Below are positions 1,538-44,208 of a stretch of DNA of 64,000 nt, one piece after another. The position numbers and the translations under genes were made by a program. A model generated the notes under the pieces. That model had not been told where the DNA came from. It searched no databases and saw nothing but the letters and a program-made list of their open reading frames with translations. The stretch comes from Escherichia coli (GTDB lineage Bacteria > Pseudomonadota > Gammaproteobacteria > Enterobacterales > Enterobacteriaceae). The first letter of the stretch is position 1. Each line of letters opens with the position of its first letter. The DNA is taken from NCBI RefSeq assembly GCF_003334305.1, contig NZ_QOWS01000018.1, one strand, 5' to 3'.

Positions 1538-2626
1538 TTAGAACTGGTAAACGATACCCACAGCAACGGTGTCGTCTGAACCTACGCCCAGTTTGTTGTC
1601 AGAATCGATCTGGTTGATGATGTAGTCAACATAGGTGGACATGTTTTTGTTGAAGTAGTAGGTTGCGCCCACTTCAAAGTAGTTCACCAGATCAACATCA
1701 CCGATACCTTCTACGTCTTTCGCTTTAGATTTGGTGTAAGCGATGGACGGACGCAGACCGAAATCGAACTGGTATTGCGCAACTAACAGAACGTCTTGCG
1801 TTTTGTTGGCGAAGCCGCTGGTGTTTGTAAATTTATTAGTGATCGGCGTAGCGTTACGGGTTTCACCGTAGTTCGCTGCCAGGTAGATGTTGTTCGCGTC
1901 GTACTTCAGACCAGTAGCCCACTGTTCAGCTTTTTTACCGTTGCCAAGAGGTTGAGCTTCTTGCAGGTTGGTACGGTCAGCTGCACCATAAGCACCAACG
2001 ATACCAAAGCCTTCGTATTCGTAGCTGATAGAACCGCCAACACCGTCGCCGTTAGAACGGCGTGCAGTGTCACGCTCGTTTTTACCCAGGTACTGAACAG
2101 CGAAGTTCAGGCCATCAACCAGACCAAAGAAGTTGGAGTTACGATAGGTAGCAACGCCGCCAACACGACCAACGAAGAAGTCATCGCTGTATGCAGTATC
2201 ACCACCAAATTCTGGCAGCATATCGGTGTAACCCAGTGCATCATAAACCACACCGTAGTTACGGCCGTAATCGAAAGAACCAACGTCAGCGTATTTAAGA
2301 CCCGCGAATGCCAGACGCGTTTTGTTACCAGTTTGAGCGTCAGCGCCTTCAGAGTTGTTACCCTGGAAGTTATATTCCCACTGACCATAACCGGTCAGAT
2401 CGGAATTGATTTGAGTTTCCCCTTTAAAACCAAGACGGGCATAGGTCATGTCGCCATTGCCACCGTAACTGTTTTCACCGTTACCCTTGGAAAAATAATG
2501 CAGACCAACAGCTTTACCGTACAGATCTACTTTGTTGCCATCTTTGTTATAGATTTCTGCAGCGTTTGCAGTACCTGCTACTAACAGAGCAGGGACGATC
2601 ACTGCCAGAATATTGCGCTTCATCAT
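1538..2626 (-). CDS. ompF: Outer membrane porin F
   Basis: 362-aa [25 protein letters not shown] with signal peptide, ending in the porin C-terminal VGIVYQF. Confidence 0.97.
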
Positions 2627-2739
2627 TATTTATTACCCTCATGGTTTTTTTTATGACACCTGCCACTGCCTTCAATAAGTTCTGTCAATAAAAATTTACG
2701 GAACTATTGATGAGAGTTTGGTGTCTTTATGTGTCTGCA

Positions 2740-2840
2740 GGCATCTTTCCATTCAAACTAACGTTTCGCTACCGTGAAAGTGCTACAAAGATAAAGATTT
2801 AGTTTCAAAAAGAAAAAATATGTAACCAAAAGTAAAAATT
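2740..2840 (-). promoter_or_regulatory. ompF promoter with proximal OmpR-binding sites (F1-F3)
   Basis: Reverse complement reads TTTACTTTTGGTTACATATTTTTTCTTTTTGAAAC...TTTATCTTTGTAGCACTTTCACGG, matching the ompF upstream OmpR region as I recall it; exact site boundaries are approximate. Confidence 0.6.
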
Positions 2841-3184
2841 AAGGAACTTTGTGAACACCGTCATATTTCCATAGAAACGTGATGATATTTACAGCAATTT
2901 TTATCTATTTATATGATTTACTTATATTTAAATTAACTAAACGGAAATTTTGTTTCTGATGGAAACTTTATCGACCTGGCACAAAATCCTCTTTCAGACA
3001 TCCAGAATGCCAAAAAATAGTATGAAAATTGTGCTATCAGCTAAGAAAAAACTAATCCGCAATAAGAATGCGGGTTATTTTTTGTGCGTAAATGTTGCAA
3101 TGTAATATTCCGTAACAGGATGATCGTTATGGCGGGGTTGCAAATAGATTGCTTGACTTAACAAACAGATAACTTGACAGAAAG

Positions 3185-3215
3185 GATAAAAAAGAGCCAG
3201 CAGGCGCTGGCTCTT
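3185..3215 (-). terminator. asnS intrinsic terminator
   Basis: Stem agagccag/ctggctct followed on the minus strand by a U-run (plus-strand aaaaaa at 3187-3192). Confidence 0.6.
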
Positions 3216-3227
3216 TGAGGAAGAAAA

Positions 3228-4628
3228 TCAGAAGCTGGCGTTGCGCGGAGTACGTGGGAACGGAATCACATCACGCACGTTTTGCACGCCAGTTACGTAA
3301 GCAATCAGGCGTTCAAAACCAAGACCGAAACCTGAATGCGGAACAGTACCGTAGCGACGCAGATCGCGATACCACCAGTAATCTTCTTTATTCAGGCCCA
3401 TTTCCAGCATACGCTCGTCCAGAACGTCCAGACGTTCTTCACGCTGGGAGCCACCAATGATCTCACCGATGCCCGGAGCCAGAACGTCCATAGCCGCAAC
3501 GGTTTTACCGTCTTCGTTGAGGCGCATATAGAACGCTTTAATATCTTTCGGATAGTTTTTAACCACTACCGGTGCTTTAAAGTGTTCTTCCGCCAGATAA
3601 CGCTCATGCTCAGAAGAGAGATCGACGCCCCAGTAAACCGGGTTTTCAAACTTCCTGCCGCAGTTTTCGAGAATGGTCACTGCGTCGGTGTAATCCACCT
3701 GCGCGAAATCGGCCTCAATGAAGCGTTCCAGACGTGAAACGGCATCTTTATCTACGCGTTCAGCGAAGAATTTCATGTCGTCTGCGCGTTCTTCGAGAAC
3801 CGCTTTGAAGACATATTTCAGCATGGCTTCAGCCAGACCCGCGATATCGTTCAGGTTAGCAAACGCCACTTCCGGCTCCAGCATCCAGAATTCCGCCAGG
3901 TGACGGCTGGTGTTGGAGTTTTCAGCACGGAAAGTCGGGCCGAAGGTATAAATTTTGGATAATGCGCAAGCGTAGGTTTCGCCGTTCAACTGGCCAGATA
4001 CGGTCAGGAAAGACTCTTTACCAAAGAAGTCTTTGTCGAAATCCACTTTGCCCTGATCGTTACGCGGCAGGTTTTCCAGATCCAGCGTAGAAACGCGGAA
4101 CATTTCGCCTGCACCTTCGGTATCAGATGCGGTAATCAGTGGCGTTGAAACCCAGAAGAATCCCTGCTCGTTAAAGAAGCGATGCAGCGCCTGCGCCAGC
4201 GTATGGCGAACGCGCGCGACGGCACCAATCAGGTTTGTGCGCGGACGCAGGTGAGCGACTTCACGCAGATACTCAATGCTGTGGCGTTTTGCCGCCATCG
4301 GGTAAGTGTCTGGATCTTCAACCCAACCAGCAACTTCAACTTTGCTGGCCTGAATTTCAAATTGTTGCCCCTGGCCCGGCGACGCCACGACTTTACCCGT
4401 CACAATGACCGAGCAGCCGGTGGTCAGACGCAGGACGTCTTCATTGTAATTGGGCAGAGAATTATTGATGACAGCCTGTACAGGATCAAAGCAGGAACCG
4501 TCATAAACGGCGAGGAAGGAGATGCCAGCTTTTGAATCTCGGCGGGTACGTACCCATCCGCGTACGGTGACTTCGCTGTCAACGGCTACGCGGCCCTGGA
4601 GTACGTCGGCTACAGGCACAACGCTCAT
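3228..4628 (-). CDS. asnS: Asparaginyl-tRNA synthetase
   Basis: Track ORF 3228..4673 trimmed to the internal ATG giving [13 protein letters not shown] (466 aa); class II aaRS motifs such as FRAE and GFGLGFERL are present. Confidence 0.95.
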
Positions 4629-11795: not shown

Positions 11796-12751
11796 AATTG
11801 TTTTCCTTCCAGTTGAGTGGGCTGCCAGATGCGCTGGCGAATATCGACTTTTTTCGGCACCAGACGATTTTCATAAAACAGATCTGCCGTTTGCTGCTGT
11901 AAGGCGGCAATCTCGGCGTTAACCGGTTTGATGGTGGTAGGAGGGCGATGATCTAAGTAAGAGGCAATCACCGGTGCCGGTAAGCCCATCGTTTTTGCCA
12001 GTAAAGCGATGCTTTGCTCGCGCTGGCTGCGGGTTAACGCATCGGCCTCACTAAAGGTTGCCAGTACGCCCTGAATAAAAGCGCCGTTTTTTTCTGCATA
12101 GGGGCGAGCTGCCAGATAAAACGATCCGGTTTGATTGAGATCGGTGCCGTCTTTCAACACCCGCACGCCGCCCTGTAATAACGCAGCGGAGTAGTAGGGA
12201 TCCCAGATAGCCCAGGCGTCAACGTTACCTTGCTGGAACGCGGCGCGGGCATCGGCAGGTGTCAGGTAAGTGGGTTGTATATCGGTAAACTTAAGTCCGG
12301 CCTGACGCAGTGCACGCAGTAAAAGGTTGTGTGAACTGGAACCTTTCTGAAAGGCAACTTTGTGACCTTTAAGATCGGCTACGGTTTTGATCGGGCTGTT
12401 TTCTGCCACCAGAATCACTTCGGCTTTGGGCTTCGGTGGCTCGACGCCCACATATACCAAATCAGCCCCGGCAGCCTGGGCAAAGATTGGCGGAATATCC
12501 CCGGTACTGCCGAGATCAATACTGCCAACGTTTAACGCTTCCAACATTTGCGGACCCGCGGGGAACTCCACCCAGGAGATTTTTGATTGCGGATAGCGTT
12601 TTTCCAGTAACTGGTGGCTTTTTGCCAGCACCATACCAATACTGCCTTTCTGATAGCCTATACGTAACGCTTCAGGCGAGGATTCTGCAGCAACCGCAAA
12701 AGTAGAGACGCTAAGCAATCCCGCCAGCGCCAGTTTAATGATGTTACGCAT
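11792..12751 (-). CDS. ssuA: Aliphatic sulfonate periplasmic binding protein
   Basis: Track ORF trimmed to [21 protein letters not shown] with signal peptide (319 aa); 4-bp overlap with ssuD. Confidence 0.93.
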
Positions 12752-13319
12752 GGACATTACCTCGCAGAGACAGAAGGTCAGGAACCTGAACATCGCGGCG
12801 GTGCAATGCCTGCCAGAAAGTTTCTAGCGCGGTATCAAGACGGGTTTGCAGATTTGGCGTGAACTGGGGTCTGTGATGGTAATCAATGACTTGTGAGTCA
12901 TCGGCAAACACGCCGTGCAGGATCTCCTGGGCTTTCAGTGCGCTTAAAACTGGTTTAAGGGCATAATCGACCGCCAGCAGATGGGCCACGGTACCGCCCG
13001 TCGCCAGCGGTAGCACCACTTTGCCTTGCAAAGCGCGCTCTGGCAGCAGGTCGAGCAGGGTTTTCAGCGCGCCGGAATAGGCGGCTTTATACACAGGTGT
13101 AGCGACTATCAGTCCATCAGCCTGTTGCAGCTGTTCGGTGAAGGTCTTGAGTGCCGGACTATCGAAACGAGCATAAAGCAGATCTTCCGGGGCGAAGTTT
13201 TGCAGATTCCAGTGATAAACCTCTACATCGAGGCCATTTAGTTTTTCCCGCGCATATTCCAGCAAGGAGCTGGAGCGAGAAGGAAAGCGAGGACTACCCG
13301 CCAGGGTGATGACACGCAT
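12744..13319 (-). CDS. ssuE: NADPH-dependent FMN reductase
   Basis: 191-aa ORF MRVITLAGSPRFPSRSSSLL; 8-bp overlap with the ssuA start. Confidence 0.95.
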   Translation of the reverse strand: MRVITLAGSPRFPSRSSSLLEYAREKLNGLDVEVYHWNLQNFAPEDLLYARFDSPALKTFTEQLQQADGLIVATPVYKAAYSGALKTLLDLLPERALQGKVVLPLATGGTVAHLLAVDYALKPVLSALKAQEILHGVFADDSQVIDYHHRPQFTPNLQTRLDTALETFWQALHRRDVQVPDLLSLRGNVHA

Positions 13320-13674
13320 ACTCTCTCCTTATAACCAATTGTTCTTTTTTTGTTAACATTGATAACAATTCGGTCAGTCTGTCGGAGAGACAAGAAAATG
13401 CCAAATATAAATTTTGTGTATCTTTTTCTGAAAATAAACTAAAGAAAGGGCTTTATATATCACGCATATTTATTTGTTGGATAGTCATTAGATGTTGAAT
13501 CAATGAATTACTCGTTCAGTTAATATTTAAATATTCATGAAATCTATAAATTAAAGATTTGTCACTTATTGGATTTAGTATGCTTGATTTAAATGGCGGT
13601 CAATTATTGTTATTATTAAGTCTAATGTCATTTAAAGGCATTATCATATTTACGAAGAGATCAGGATGATGACG
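13320..13674. promoter_or_regulatory. AT-rich divergent control region (ssuE promoter / elf fimbrial operon upstream)
   Basis: About 355 bp markedly more AT-rich than the flanking coding DNA, between divergent ssuE and elfA. No specific binding site was mapped. Confidence 0.4.
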
Positions 13675-14217
13675 ATGAAAAAAAGTGTATTGACGGCGTT
13701 TATAACTGTGGTATGTGCAACGTCCAGCGTTATGGCAGCTGATGATAATGCTATCACGGATGGCAAAGTAACATTTAATGGTAAAGTTATTGCTCCAGCT
13801 TGTACCCTGGTAGCTGCGACGAAAGATTCAGTAGTCACATTGCCAAATGTCAGCGCCACCAAGTTGCAAACTAATGGAGCAGTCTCTGGCGTTAAAACTG
13901 ATGTACCAATTGCCTTAGAAGGCTGTGATGTTACTGTAACTAAAAATGCGACGTTTACCTTTAGTGGTACGGCTGACGGCGTGCAACCTACAGCATTTGC
14001 CAACCAGGCTACCACCGATGCAGCGACGAATGTTGCTCTACAAATGTATCTGCCAGATGGTTCTACATCGGTAACTCCCGGTACCGAAACGTCGAATATT
14101 CAGTTAGCGGATTCTGCTGAGCAAACAGTGACCTTTAAAGTTGATTATATCGCTACGGGGAAAGCGACTTCTGGTAATGTGAATGCGGTAACAAATTTCC
14201 ATATTAACTATTATTAA
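13675..14217 (+). CDS. elfA: Fimbrial major subunit (chaperone-usher pilin)
   Basis: MKKSVLTAFITVVCATSSVMA signal peptide and a pilin-like C-terminus. Start chosen at the third ATG (AGGA 10 nt upstream); the other in-frame ATGs at 13666/13669 remain possible. Confidence 0.85.
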   Translation: MKKSVLTAFITVVCATSSVMAADDNAITDGKVTFNGKVIAPACTLVAATKDSVVTLPNVSATKLQTNGAVSGVKTDVPIALEGCDVTVTKNATFTFSGTADGVQPTAFANQATTDAATNVALQMYLPDGSTSVTPGTETSNIQLADSAEQTVTFKVDYIATGKATSGNVNAVTNFHINYY

Positions 14218-14248
14218 TAGAACTCATTAATTGTTTTATTAATTAGTA

Positions 14249-14288
14249 CCCCTCTAGTGTTCTGGAGGGGATATTCATATTTTTTAAG
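14249..14288 (+). terminator. Hairpin plus T-run after the pilin gene (possible partial terminator)
   Basis: cccctctag-tgtt-ctggagggg imperfect 9-bp stem followed by atattcatatttttt, between elfA and elfD. Confidence 0.45.
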
Positions 14289-14299
14289 AGTGACTATTT

Positions 14300-15001
14300 A
14301 TGAAAACTTGCATAACAAAGGGAATTGTGACCGTAAGTTTAACGGCAATATTACTCAGCTGCTCATCCGCATGGGCGGCAGGTAAAGGCGGGATTGGACT
14401 TGCAGCAACACGTCTTGTTTATTCAGAAGGTGAAGAGCAAATTTCACTGGGTGTACGTAACACCAGTCCGGATGTTCCTTATCTTATTCAGTCATGGGTG
14501 ATGACCCCAGATAATAAAAAATCAGCAGATTTTATTATTACACCACCGCTATTTGTGCTGAATCCGGCTAATGAGAATCTGTTACGCATTATGTACATTG
14601 GTGCGCCGTTGGCGAAAGACAGAGAAACCCTTTTCTTCACTAGCGTACGGGCAGTCCCTTCAACAACGAAGCGGGAAGAGGGAAATACCCTGAAGATTGC
14701 CACACAAAGCGTCATCAAACTTTTCTGGCGACCAAAAGGTTTAGCGTATCCCTTAGGCGAGGCTCCGGCGAAACTGCGTTGCACTTCGTCAGCTGACATG
14801 GTTACGGTCAGTAACCCAACACCTTATTTCATTACCCTGACAGACCTGAAAATAGGTGGAAAAGTAGTTAAAAATCAAATGATTTCCCCCTTTGATAAAT
14901 ACCAATTTTCTCTGCCAAAGGGGGCCAAAAATAGCAGCGTAACGTATCGAACCATCAATGACTACGGGGCGGAAACGCCGCAACTCAACTGTAAATCGTA
15001 A
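14300..15001 (+). CDS. elfD: Periplasmic fimbrial chaperone
   Basis: 233 aa with signal peptide; PapD-like chaperone. Confidence 0.92.
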   Translation: MKTCITKGIVTVSLTAILLSCSSAWAAGKGGIGLAATRLVYSEGEEQISLGVRNTSPDVPYLIQSWVMTPDNKKSADFIITPPLFVLNPANENLLRIMYIGAPLAKDRETLFFTSVRAVPSTTKREEGNTLKIATQSVIKLFWRPKGLAYPLGEAPAKLRCTSSADMVTVSNPTPYFITLTDLKIGGKVVKNQMISPFDKYQFSLPKGAKNSSVTYRTINDYGAETPQLNCKS

Positions 15002-15025
15002 GCCGTCTTCAGTTAAGAGAGCGAG

Positions 15026-18687
<3,662 letters not shown>

Positions 18688-18698
18688 CGCGTGAACGT

Positions 18699-19241
18699 AT
18701 GAAGAAAAAAACGATATTTCAGTGCGTTATCTTGTTCTTTAGCATTCTTAACATCCATGTCGGGATGGCTGGGCCTGAACAAGTTAGTATGCATATTTAT
18801 GGGAATGTGGTCGATCAGGGCTGTGATGTCGCCACCAAAAGTGCATTACAAAATATTCATATTGGTGATTTTAATATCAGTGATTTTCAGGCCGCGAATA
18901 CCGTAAGCACTGCTGCTGATTTGAATATCGATATCACCGGTTGTGCCGCTGGTATTACTGGCGCGGACGTCCTTTTTAGCGGCGAGGCTGACACCCTTGC
19001 GCCGACACTGCTCAAACTAACTGACACAGGCGGAAGCGGTGGTATGGCAACGGGGATTGCCGTGCAAATTCTTGATGCGCAAAGTCAGCAAGAAATCCCG
19101 CTCAATCAGATCCAGCCTCTTACGCCCTTAAAAGCCGGGGATAACACACTCAAATATCAACTTCGTTATAAGTCCACAAAGGCGGGAGCAACGGGCGGTA
19201 ATGCGACGGCGGTTCTCTATTTTGATCTGGTTTACCAGTGA
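18699..19241 (+). CDS. ycbU: Fimbrial-like minor subunit
   Basis: 180 aa with signal peptide; pilin fold. Confidence 0.88.
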   Translation: MKKKTIFQCVILFFSILNIHVGMAGPEQVSMHIYGNVVDQGCDVATKSALQNIHIGDFNISDFQAANTVSTAADLNIDITGCAAGITGADVLFSGEADTLAPTLLKLTDTGGSGGMATGIAVQILDAQSQQEIPLNQIQPLTPLKAGDNTLKYQLRYKSTKAGATGGNATAVLYFDLVYQ

Positions 19242-19248
19242 AGGAGTG

Positions 19249-19764
19249 ATGTTGAAACGGATAATCTGGATTCTGTTCTTACTGGGATTAACGGGGGGCT
19301 GTGAGCTATTTGCCCATGATGGCACAGTCAACATTAGCGGATCGTTTCGCCGTAATACATGCGTGCTGGCACAGGATAGCAAGCAAATCAATGTGCAGTT
19401 AGGCGATGTCTCGCTGACACGTTTTTTTCATGGGAATTATGGCCCGGAGAAATCTTTCATCATTAATTTGCAGGATTGCGGAACAGATGTCAGCACGGTT
19501 GACGTCACCTTTTCAGGAACCCCCGACGGAGTGCAGAGCGAAATGCTGTCCATTGAAAGTGGTACGGATGCAGCCAGCGGGCTGGCAATTGCGATTCTGG
19601 ATGATGCGAAGATATTGATTCCGCTTAACCAGGCGAGTAAAGACTACAGCCTACATAGCGGTAAGGTGCCATTAACTTTTTATGCGCAATTGCGACCTGT
19701 CAATAGCGATGTGCAGTCGGGTAAAGTGAATGCCAGCGCGACATTTGTACTTCATTATGACTAA
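19249..19764 (+). CDS. ycbV: Fimbrial-like minor subunit
   Basis: Track ORF trimmed to MLKRIIWILFLLGLTGGCELFA (171 aa); AAGGAG 3 nt upstream of this ATG. Confidence 0.85.
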   Translation: MLKRIIWILFLLGLTGGCELFAHDGTVNISGSFRRNTCVLAQDSKQINVQLGDVSLTRFFHGNYGPEKSFIINLQDCGTDVSTVDVTFSGTPDGVQSEMLSIESGTDAASGLAIAILDDAKILIPLNQASKDYSLHSGKVPLTFYAQLRPVNSDVQSGKVNASATFVLHYD

Positions 19765-20467
19765 TACGTGGAACAGATTGGCGCTCTTGATTTTCGCCGT
19801 TTTATCGCTGCTGGTGGCGGGTGAATTGCGGGCAGGAGTGGTGGTCGGCGGAACGCGATTTATCTTTCCGGCAGACAGAGAATCGATATCTATTTTACTG
19901 ACTAATACCAGTCAGGAATCCTGGCTTATTAACAGTAAAATCAACCGCCCAACGCGTTGGGCCGGGGGGGAAGCGTCGACAGTGCCAGCACCATTACTGG
20001 CCGCTCCGCCACTTATTCTCCTGAAGCCCGGTACTACAGGCACGTTGCGCTTGCTGAGAACGGAAAGCGACATCTTGCCTGTGGATCGCGAAACGCTATT
20101 TGAGTTAAGCATTGCCAGCGTGCCATCCGGCAAAGTTGAAAATCAGAGCGTAAAAGTGGCGATGCGCTCGGTATTTAAACTGTTCTGGCGACCCGAAGGT
20201 TTGCCGGGCGACCCGCTGGAAGCTTATCAACAATTACGCTGGACACGGAATTCGCAGGGTGTACAACTCACTAACCCAACGCCTTACTACATTAACCTGA
20301 TTCAGTTGAGCGTAAATGGTAAAGCGTTAAGTAATGCGGGAGTTGTGCCGCCTAAAAGCCAGCGTCAGACAAGCTGGTGTCAGGCAATCGCACCGTGTCA
20401 TGTCGCCTGGCGGGCGATAAATGATTACGGCGGGTTGAGTGCAAAGAAGGAGCAAAATCTGCCCTGA
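19757..20467 (+). CDS. ycbF: Second periplasmic fimbrial chaperone of the operon
   Basis: Track ORF trimmed to MTNTWNRLALLIFAVLSLLVA (236 aa); PapD-like; start overlaps the ycbV stop. Confidence 0.85.
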   Translation: MTNTWNRLALLIFAVLSLLVAGELRAGVVVGGTRFIFPADRESISILLTNTSQESWLINSKINRPTRWAGGEASTVPAPLLAAPPLILLKPGTTGTLRLLRTESDILPVDRETLFELSIASVPSGKVENQSVKVAMRSVFKLFWRPEGLPGDPLEAYQQLRWTRNSQGVQLTNPTPYYINLIQLSVNGKALSNAGVVPPKSQRQTSWCQAIAPCHVAWRAINDYGGLSAKKEQNLP

Positions 20468-20476
20468 AACAGGTTC

Positions 20477-20492
20477 GGAAAACGTTTGCGTT
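20477..20492. promoter_or_regulatory. Candidate PurR operator upstream of pyrD
   Basis: ggAAAACGTTTGCGtt contains the conserved AAACGTTTGCG core of the pur box; pyrD is a reported PurR target. Confidence 0.5.
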
Positions 20493-20577
20493 TTTTTTGC
20501 CGCAGGTCAATTCCCTTTTGGTCCGAACTCGCACATAATACGCCCCCGGTTTGCACACCGGGAATCCAGGAGAGTTC

Positions 20578-21588
20578 ATGTACTACCCCTTCGTTCGTAA
20601 AGCCCTTTTCCAGCTCGATCCAGAGCGCGCTCATGAGTTTACTTTTCAGCAATTACGCCGTATTACAGGAACGCCGTTTGAAGCACTGGTGCGGCAGAAA
20701 GTGCCTGCGAAACCTGTTAACTGCATGGGCCTGACGTTTAAAAATCCGCTTGGTCTGGCAGCCGGTCTTGATAAAGACGGGGAGTGCATTGACGCGTTAG
20801 GCGCGATGGGATTTGGATCGATCGAGATCGGTACCGTCACGCCACGTCCACAGCCAGGTAATGACAAGCCGCGTCTCTTTCGTCTGGTAGATGCCGAAGG
20901 TTTGATCAACCGTATGGGCTTTAATAATCTTGGCGTTGATAACCTCGTAGAGAACGTAAAAAAGGCCCATTATGACGGCGTCCTGGGTATTAACATCGGC
21001 AAAAATAAAGATACTCCAGTGGAGCAGGGCAAAGATGACTATCTGATTTGTATGGAAAAAATCTATGCCTATGCGGGATATATCGCCATCAATATTTCAT
21101 CGCCGAATACCCCAGGATTACGCACGCTGCAATATGGTGAAGCGCTGGATGATCTCTTAACCGCGATTAAAAATAAGCAAAATGATTTGCAAGCGATGCA
21201 CCATAAATATGTGCCGATCGCAGTGAAGATCGCGCCGGATCTTTCTGAAGAAGAATTGATCCAGGTTGCCGATAGTTTAGTTCGCCATAATATTGATGGC
21301 GTTATTGCAACCAATACCACACTCGATCGTTCTCTTGTTCAGGGAATGAAAAATTGCGATCAAACCGGTGGCTTAAGTGGTCGTCCGCTTCAGTTAAAAA
21401 GCACCGAAATTATTCGCCGCTTGTCACTGGAATTAAACGGTCGCTTACCGATCATCGGTGTTGGCGGCATCGACTCGGTTATCGCTGCGCGTGAAAAGAT
21501 TGCTGCGGGTGCCTCACTGGTGCAAATTTATTCTGGTTTTATTTTTAAAGGTCCGCCGCTGATTAAAGAAATCGTTACCCATATCTAA
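20578..21588 (+). CDS. pyrD: Dihydroorotate dehydrogenase (quinone)
   Basis: Track ORF begins at a TTG; trimmed to the ATG giving [21 protein letters not shown] (336 aa). Confidence 0.95.
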
Positions 21589-42337: not shown

Positions 42338-42362
42338 AACAGGTGGCGTTTGCCACCTGTGC
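42338..42362 (-). terminator. Hairpin between convergent helD and mgsA
   Basis: Stem acaggtggc/gccacctgt with loop gttt; T-rich tract follows on the minus strand. Confidence 0.5.
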
Positions 42363-44169: not shown

Positions 44170-44208
44170 AAAATCCCCGGAAGGCAAAAACCTTCCGGGG
44201 ATTCGTTC
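44168..44208. terminator. Bidirectional terminator between yccU and hspQ
   Basis: atccccggaagg-caaaaa-ccttccggggat perfect 12-bp stem with an A-run on the plus strand (U-run for the minus strand). Confidence 0.75.

Follow-up and report, generated by a model that had tools for sequence, protein, structure and literature searches.

A conserved stem-loop following the major pilin gene of the Escherichia coli elf operon as a candidate 3' element favouring pilin message

Fimbrial operons provide several precedents for RNA structures that lie just beyond a pilin gene. In the pap operon, partial termination between papA and papH reduces downstream transcripts, according to a review (PMC6524683) that cites the original work (Baga 1985). 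In the fim operon of K-12, RefSeq annotates a 35-nt small RNA (sRNA), FimR2 (b4838), in the fimA-fimI spacer; its hairpin, GGGCA-GGGA-UGCCC, is followed by no U tract. FimR2 is produced from the fim transcript via RNase E processing (PMC9723502), and a strong primary 3' end mapped by Term-seq at 4543708 coincides with the 3' end of the annotated RNA (Adams 2021). Beyond fimbriae, many E. coli operons have protective 3' structures through which differential decay resets their stoichiometry (PMC5927463).

To these systems we compared the elf locus of E. coli, which lies within the 64,000-nt stretch of DNA analysed here (the window). The gene order is ssuE/ssuA (minus strand), elfA, an 82-nt spacer, elfD, elfC, elfG and ycbU/V/F. 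Many phylogroup B1-type and O111 genomes match positions 14100-14420 with 100% identity, and the genes annotated under this interval are a fimbrial protein gene and elfD; by that annotation, the names elfA and chaperone used in an earlier note on this DNA are right. The longest elfA open reading frame starts at 13666, with 13675 being the start annotated in a near-identical genome, and it terminates with a double stop, TAA TAG. From the elfA end at 14217 to the elfD start at 14300, the gap measures 82 nt, the length that the note had given. The elf operon is silenced by H-NS in K-12, and on overproduction of SlyA all seven genes, elfADCG-ycbUVF, go up together, with the induction value averaged over the operon (PMC5797941); from this joint rise, transcription can read through the hairpin described below. 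The features of the region, in window coordinates, are as follows.

13666-14217, plus strand: elfA, major pilin gene (open reading frame list; annotation of E. coli E2865 and K-12)
14226-14247, plus strand: palindrome of A and U only, ATTAATTG-6 nt-TAATTAGT (weak, -2.3 kcal/mol; present in the minimum free energy (MFE) fold of the spacer)
14249-14257, plus strand: hairpin 5' arm, CCCCTCTAG (sequence reading and fold)
14258-14261, plus strand: hairpin tetraloop, UGUU (fold)
14262-14270, plus strand: hairpin 3' arm, CTGGAGGGG (sequence reading and fold)
14271-14279, plus strand: A/U-rich tract adjoining the stem, AUAUUCAUA (four U in its first eight nt, AUAUUCAU)
14280-14285, plus strand: T6 run, 10-15 nt beyond the stem and immediately 5' of the Shine-Dalgarno sequence of elfD
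14286-14290, plus strand: Shine-Dalgarno-like AAGAG of elfD, 9 nt 5' of the ATG (read from the sequence)
14300-15001, plus strand: elfD, periplasmic chaperone, the first assembly gene 3' of the hairpin

Of 5426 complete E. coli genomes, 4013 contain the elfA-elfD junction, with a median of one copy each. No match was obtained in 1412-1413 of the 5426, sensitive mode included, which indicates that the elf operon is missing from about a quarter of sequenced strains. The ElfA of the window is a distinct allele, with 84% amino acid identity to K-12 ElfA (13675-14217 compared) and differences concentrated between residues 60 and 150. At the nucleotide level, the sequence becomes similar to K-12-type genomes again at ~14129, ~90 nt 5' of the elfA stop, and the spacer and elfD, unlike the elfA body, are ~99% identical to the K-12 type; by sequence, the ElfA body looks like a variable cassette flanked by conserved ends. 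In E. coli O6:H16 2011EL-1370-2, IS1 copies occur directly 3' of elfA (2560-3910 of the extracted locus), taking the place of the hairpin spacer and the 5' part of elfD, which is annotated there as a partial pseudogene. At the far end of the operon, ycbF (window 19730-20467) is an intact open reading frame of 245 aa; it is a frameshifted pseudogene in the annotation of the otherwise near-identical E2865, from which the window differs by a 1-nt indel near 20 kb. Further downstream lies a tRNA-Ser gene (anticodon UGA, window 47435-47522), directly after which E2865 carries a lambdoid prophage with integrase, exonuclease, dicB, relBE and hokD. An apparent prophage towards the right end of the window proved to be an artefact of applying the E2865 annotation, as the window departs from E2865 past tRNA-Ser without an insertion; beyond this gene it holds the core genes gfc/etk, hya and app.

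The elf hairpin comprises a stem of nine pairs (14249-14257/14262-14270), seven of them G-C and one a U·G, capped by a 4-nt loop, in keeping with the imperfect 9-bp stem that the earlier note had described. By itself the hairpin has a predicted energy of -15.6 kcal/mol. Folding of 14240-14295 gave an MFE of -17.5 and a centroid of -16.7 kcal/mol, both beyond the threshold of -8 kcal/mol that the note had set for this interval, with z = -2.4 and 5 of 200 shuffles equalling it; the whole spacer folds to -23.0 kcal/mol (z = -3.3; 1 of 200 shuffles). G+C is concentrated in the stem: of the other 60 nt of the spacer only 10 are G/C, and the composition there is 50% T and 83% A+T. We conclude that the hairpin is real and non-random. 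The stem lies 31 nt past the end of elfA, with 29 nt between it and the ATG of elfD and 15 nt between it and the Shine-Dalgarno sequence, distances at which it can form without clashing with terminating or initiating ribosomes. A comparable A/T palindrome to that at 14226-14247 was observed in the HB42 and Escherichia sp. E1V33 variants, and not in the MFE fold of EC21Z144. This palindrome might be a protein site in an H-NS/SlyA-controlled locus or might reflect mere A/T richness, and we regard it as an accessory feature of uncertain relevance. In Rfam, a search of 13000-15500 at a permissive E-value returned only a chance snoRNA match and no family for the hairpin, and the literature found on elf does not describe it. 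A REP/BIME element or other dispersed repeat was rejected, since the sequence, with up to 3 mismatches allowed, matched a single place in the window, and the median across 4013 genomes was one place per genome.

To assess conservation of the hairpin, we searched genome contigs with ElfD, which yielded few true orthologs, namely Escherichia sp. E1V33 and three Pseudocitrobacter; the other matches were distant paralogs or contaminant contigs. Contigs of 241-766 nt in the assemblies of Colwellia sp. TT2012 and Amycolatopsis orientalis carry 99%-identical ElfD fragments, which are almost certainly E. coli contamination. K-12 and most E. coli alleles have the 5' arm CCCCTCCAG, giving a perfect stem at -17.9 kcal/mol. 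The T at 14255 of the window is a derived C-to-T change, replacing the C of K-12-type alleles and producing the U·G pair. The divergent allele of HB42/GN03139, CCCTTCCAG with the loop TGTC, contains a C-to-U change that likewise retains a wobble pair. The 3' arm is unchanged throughout E. coli and is altered in step with the 5' arm in E1V33, where CCCCATC-11 nt-GATGGGG is followed by the same ATATTCACATTTTTAT tail; compared with E. coli, two pairs of this variant have changed on both sides (double compensatory changes), one from U-A to A-U and one from C-G to U-A. The AUAUUCA tract after the stem is kept within Escherichia. In Pseudocitrobacter, the pilin of which ends in the FHINYY motif, as does that of elfA, the hairpin is CCCCTTCA-9 nt-TGAAGGGG, followed by GGAGAGCCGC and no T tract, and P. 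vendiensis has only a weak hairpin of -7.9 kcal/mol with A residues after it. As the Pseudocitrobacter hairpin persists without a T tract, the conserved part is the stem and not a terminator tail. At a more distant chaperone-usher locus, in Ursidibacter, a CCCCAGC/GCTGGGG hairpin also occurs after the pilin gene.

A structure-aware pair table revealed no broken pair in the five ortholog variants, a small sample of independent variants, the changes being two one-sided C-to-U and two double compensatory ones. An alignment by MAFFT with RNAalifold on six variants was left out, since it misaligned the 5' arms of two longer-loop sequences and gave false 'broken' pairs. Both one-sided changes produce U·G on the plus strand but A·C on the minus strand, and the minus strand of the spacer folds to -14.8 versus -23.0 kcal/mol on the plus strand. 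As these changes pair only on the plus strand and the minus strand folds worse, the hairpin is specific to the sense-strand RNA. A function on the minus strand was rejected, given the weaker fold, the lack of a T tract after it and the lack of a convergent gene.

The tail of the hairpin does not resemble that of a canonical terminator. Nine non-run bases, ATATTCATA, separate the stem from the T6 run. With 50% T in the spacer outside the hairpin, the probability of a T6 run in the 29 nt before elfD is 0.19, and that of at least four T in the first 8 nt, at the same spacer composition, is 0.64; the run is therefore no more than chance gives. It also varies by allele, reading TTTGTT in one, T7 displaced by 1 nt in another and TTTTTAT in E1V33. 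The elfD Shine-Dalgarno AAGAG, which the run abuts, is unchanged across all aligned Escherichia alleles, and on account of this adjacency T6 may be part of the elfD translation initiation region. The hairpin has the G+C-rich stem of ~5-14 bp and the loop of 3-8 nt that characterise intrinsic terminators; a U tract of ~7-9 nt beginning 0-2 nt past the stem is not found in the elf tail. Its d'Aubenton-Carafa-type tail score is 1.39 (maximum 7.15), compared with 2.7-4.7 at the clear operon-end terminators in the window (asnS, pncB, pqiC, fabA, sulA, hspQ, ompA and mgsA), the hairpins of which, at -12.9 to -27 kcal/mol, are similar to that of elf. A consensus terminator scan, which needs at least 5 T in an 8-nt window opening 0-2 nt past the stem, reported 15 sites in 12500-21500, with the elf hairpin not among them. 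Elsewhere in the window, at ~31710-31733, 34783-34806, 42338-42361 and 44176-44199, single hairpins reside between convergent genes (rmf/fabA, matP/ompA, helD/mgsA and yccU/hspQ), flanked on opposite sides by A runs and T runs; from this arrangement they look like shared bidirectional terminators.

The elf hairpin is one of several in equivalent positions. In K-12, a hairpin of -11.9 kcal/mol or stronger follows the first pilin gene in seven of nine chaperone-usher operons, namely elf, fim, yad, ybg, yfc, yra and ygiL/yqi; the yeh spacer has no such hairpin, and the long spacer of sfm contains only a weaker one. The energies are -23.0 kcal/mol for yraH, -16.2 for yfcV, -16.1 for ygiL, -15.1 for yadN and -11.9 for ybgD, and the hairpins after all five genes are unannotated. 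That of yfcV, CCCCATAGC...GCTATGGGG followed by TATTTAAAT, is elf-like in form. The tails vary: TTT occurs directly after the yad, ybg and yra hairpins, a mixed A/U sequence in elf and yfc, and no T tract in fim and ygiL. A hairpin after the pilin gene is accordingly typical, as the earlier note had assumed, with the qualification that it acts as a terminator in only some operons. In the bicyclomycin table of Adams 2021, a 3' end at K-12 3185961 (+), four nucleotides before the end of ygiL, is recorded as Rho-sensitive. This end sits upstream of the post-ygiL hairpin, inside the last codons, so at least one cryptic pilin gene is ended by Rho and not at its hairpin. Among published K-12 data, the Term-seq set of Adams 2021 has no elfA/elfD entry, with fimA present, and the TERMITe supplements have no elfA/elfD 3' end, both of which we attribute to the silence of the operon in K-12.

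We propose that the elf hairpin could be a 3' stem-loop that lets the elfA message outlast or outnumber that of elfDCG, mainly as an exonuclease barrier and possibly with leaky termination besides; our confidence in this reading is evenly balanced. On this view, the polycistronic elfADCG-ycbUVF transcript would carry, where its elfA cistron ends, a stem-loop that forms in the sense-strand RNA and makes the elfA segment more abundant than the segment for chaperone, usher and adhesin. RNA polymerase would mostly read through the site, and the A/U-rich, weakly protected RNA 3' of the stem would then be cut or decay. The 3'-to-5' exonucleases PNPase and RNase II would be halted by the 9-bp, G+C-rich stem, so that the elfA mRNA would be stabilised, and a minor fraction of transcripts may end at the hairpin through inefficient intrinsic termination. 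What we infer from the comparisons above is that exonucleases are blocked, that the RNA is cleaved downstream and that stoichiometry is affected. A barrier is favoured because evolution keeps the stem and not the T tract, and because the fim analogue works by processing. As in known cases of differential decay, a stable structure lies 3' of the more-needed cistron, and in the five variants, a small sample, it is kept despite sequence change. Against a barrier, RNase E-type motifs (RN|WUU) past the stem, at 14271, 14277 and 14279, occur only at chance density (3 seen versus 2.26 expected).

The same outcome would follow from a leaky intrinsic (Rho-independent) terminator, at which some polymerases release 7-9 nt past the stem and others read into elfDCG; termination and an exonuclease barrier are not exclusive. 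We regard it as a serious rival, though a less probable one than the barrier. The hairpin energy lies inside the range of the clear terminators in the window, the 8 nt past the stem are A/U except for one C and would form a weak RNA:DNA hybrid, the AUAUUCA tract is conserved within Escherichia, and the yadN, ybgD and yraH hairpins of K-12 are followed directly by TTT; partial termination at papA/papH (PMC6524683) supplies a precedent. On the other hand, the first 8 nt contain only four U, with the low tail score and the negative scan given above, the U count is still lower in some alleles (ATATCCAT), and the Pseudocitrobacter orthologs have no T tract at all. The T6 run, at chance level, starts 10 nt beyond the stem, too distant for the release hybrid, and through its position next to the elfD Shine-Dalgarno sequence may instead serve elfD translation initiation. 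Of the hairpin and T-run unit put forward in the earlier note, then, the hairpin stands as non-random, and the T-run is present but displaced from the stem. Its proposal that the unit sets pilin excess is plausible, in view of the conserved strong hairpin, its recurrence in seven of nine operons and the pap precedent. The partial terminator it named as the mechanism fares less well given the tail score, the scan, Pseudocitrobacter and the fimA analogue, and the hairpin is probably not mainly a terminator.

Other accounts appear less probable still. That the hairpin has no regulatory role, being a neutral structure or one whose conservation mirrors low spacer divergence, is unlikely: every change in the stem preserves pairs, two being double compensatory, different hairpins occupy the same position in more distant orthologs and in unrelated fimbrial operons, and the stem stands out as a G+C island in an A+T-rich spacer. 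In its favour, the spacer is 91-100% identical within E. coli, so that invariance there says little, each strand of the window contains about 21 equally strong hairpins in 64 kb, and the operon is cryptic in K-12. A precursor from which a stable small RNA is cut, as FimR2 is from fimA-fimI, would occupy the position of FimR2, itself a hairpin without a U tract that RNase E frees. We find this very improbable, as the sequence is not similar to that of FimR2 (22% of shuffles gave a local alignment as good), the loop is UGUU and not a GGA loop, Rfam gives no match, and the upstream flank is nearly pure A/U with no obvious seed. Just as improbable, in our judgement, is the broader idea that the hairpins after the elf, yfc, yra, yad, ybg, ygiL and fim pilin genes are all freed as FimR2-like stable trans-acting sRNAs in fimbrial cross-talk with adhesins and motility, with the elf one an unrecognised member. 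Control of elfD translation, whereby ACUC after the elfA stop pairs with the Shine-Dalgarno GAGU and couples elfD to elfA translation, has the slimmest prospects of all. A long-range helix of this kind is seen in the MFE fold of the 82-nt spacer, in a three-way structure around the hairpin. However, it has just 4 bp, it is absent in EC21Z144 (ACAC) and HB42/GN03139 (CAGCC) with no compensating change in the Shine-Dalgarno region, and the main hairpin stops 15 nt before the Shine-Dalgarno sequence; the pairing was rejected because it is not conserved. Two further candidates were set aside. For a hairpin-dependent pause site, the consensus signature, which has G at -10, a pyrimidine at -1 and G at +1, is missing by eye at the right spacing, and a 9-bp stem is too short for an RNase III site.

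Elements of this kind have long been known, and the elf hairpin is one that had not been described. If it works as proposed, one promoter would suffice for the ELF operon to produce pilin in large excess over chaperone, usher and adhesin, by the logic of pap and fim, which would add one more case of a long-known principle. Constructs that express elf from a foreign promoter should retain the stem at 14249-14270 for native subunit ratios. Annotation pipelines leave post-pilin hairpins unmarked; with seven of nine K-12 operons carrying one, with very different tails and with one already an sRNA, these elements are worth a systematic look with 3'-end data.

Compared with its closest counterparts, the elf hairpin shares features with each. 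Like pap, it places a stem-loop directly after the major pilin gene, with read-through feeding the scarcer assembly genes, and the expected outcome, excess pilin message, is the same. In pap, termination is documented, whereas the elf U tract is sub-canonical; pap also has RNase E cleavage upstream of papA, whereas no cistron lies upstream of elfA. FimR2 likewise derives from the 3' region of a pilin gene, before the next fimbrial gene, with a hairpin lacking a U tract after it, and defines an RNA 3' end in vivo; unlike elf, with its UGUU loop and no sequence similarity, FimR2 has GGA in its loop and binds CsrA. Intrinsic terminators after pncB, pqiC, fabA and hspQ resemble elf in their G+C-rich stem, short loop and comparable energy, but they have 5-7 T in 8 nt and tail scores of 3.5-4.7, compared with four T, 1.39 and a T6 displaced by 9 nt in elf. 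Differential-decay elements such as that of malE-malF (Dar and Sorek 2018, PMC5927463) have, like elf, a stable conserved structure 3' of the most-needed cistron, and in both these elements and the elf proposal PNPase and RNase II are blocked after a downstream cut. The elf element differs from them in being single-copy, non-REP and only 9 bp long, with a stem shorter and weaker than those of the classical REP stabilisers.
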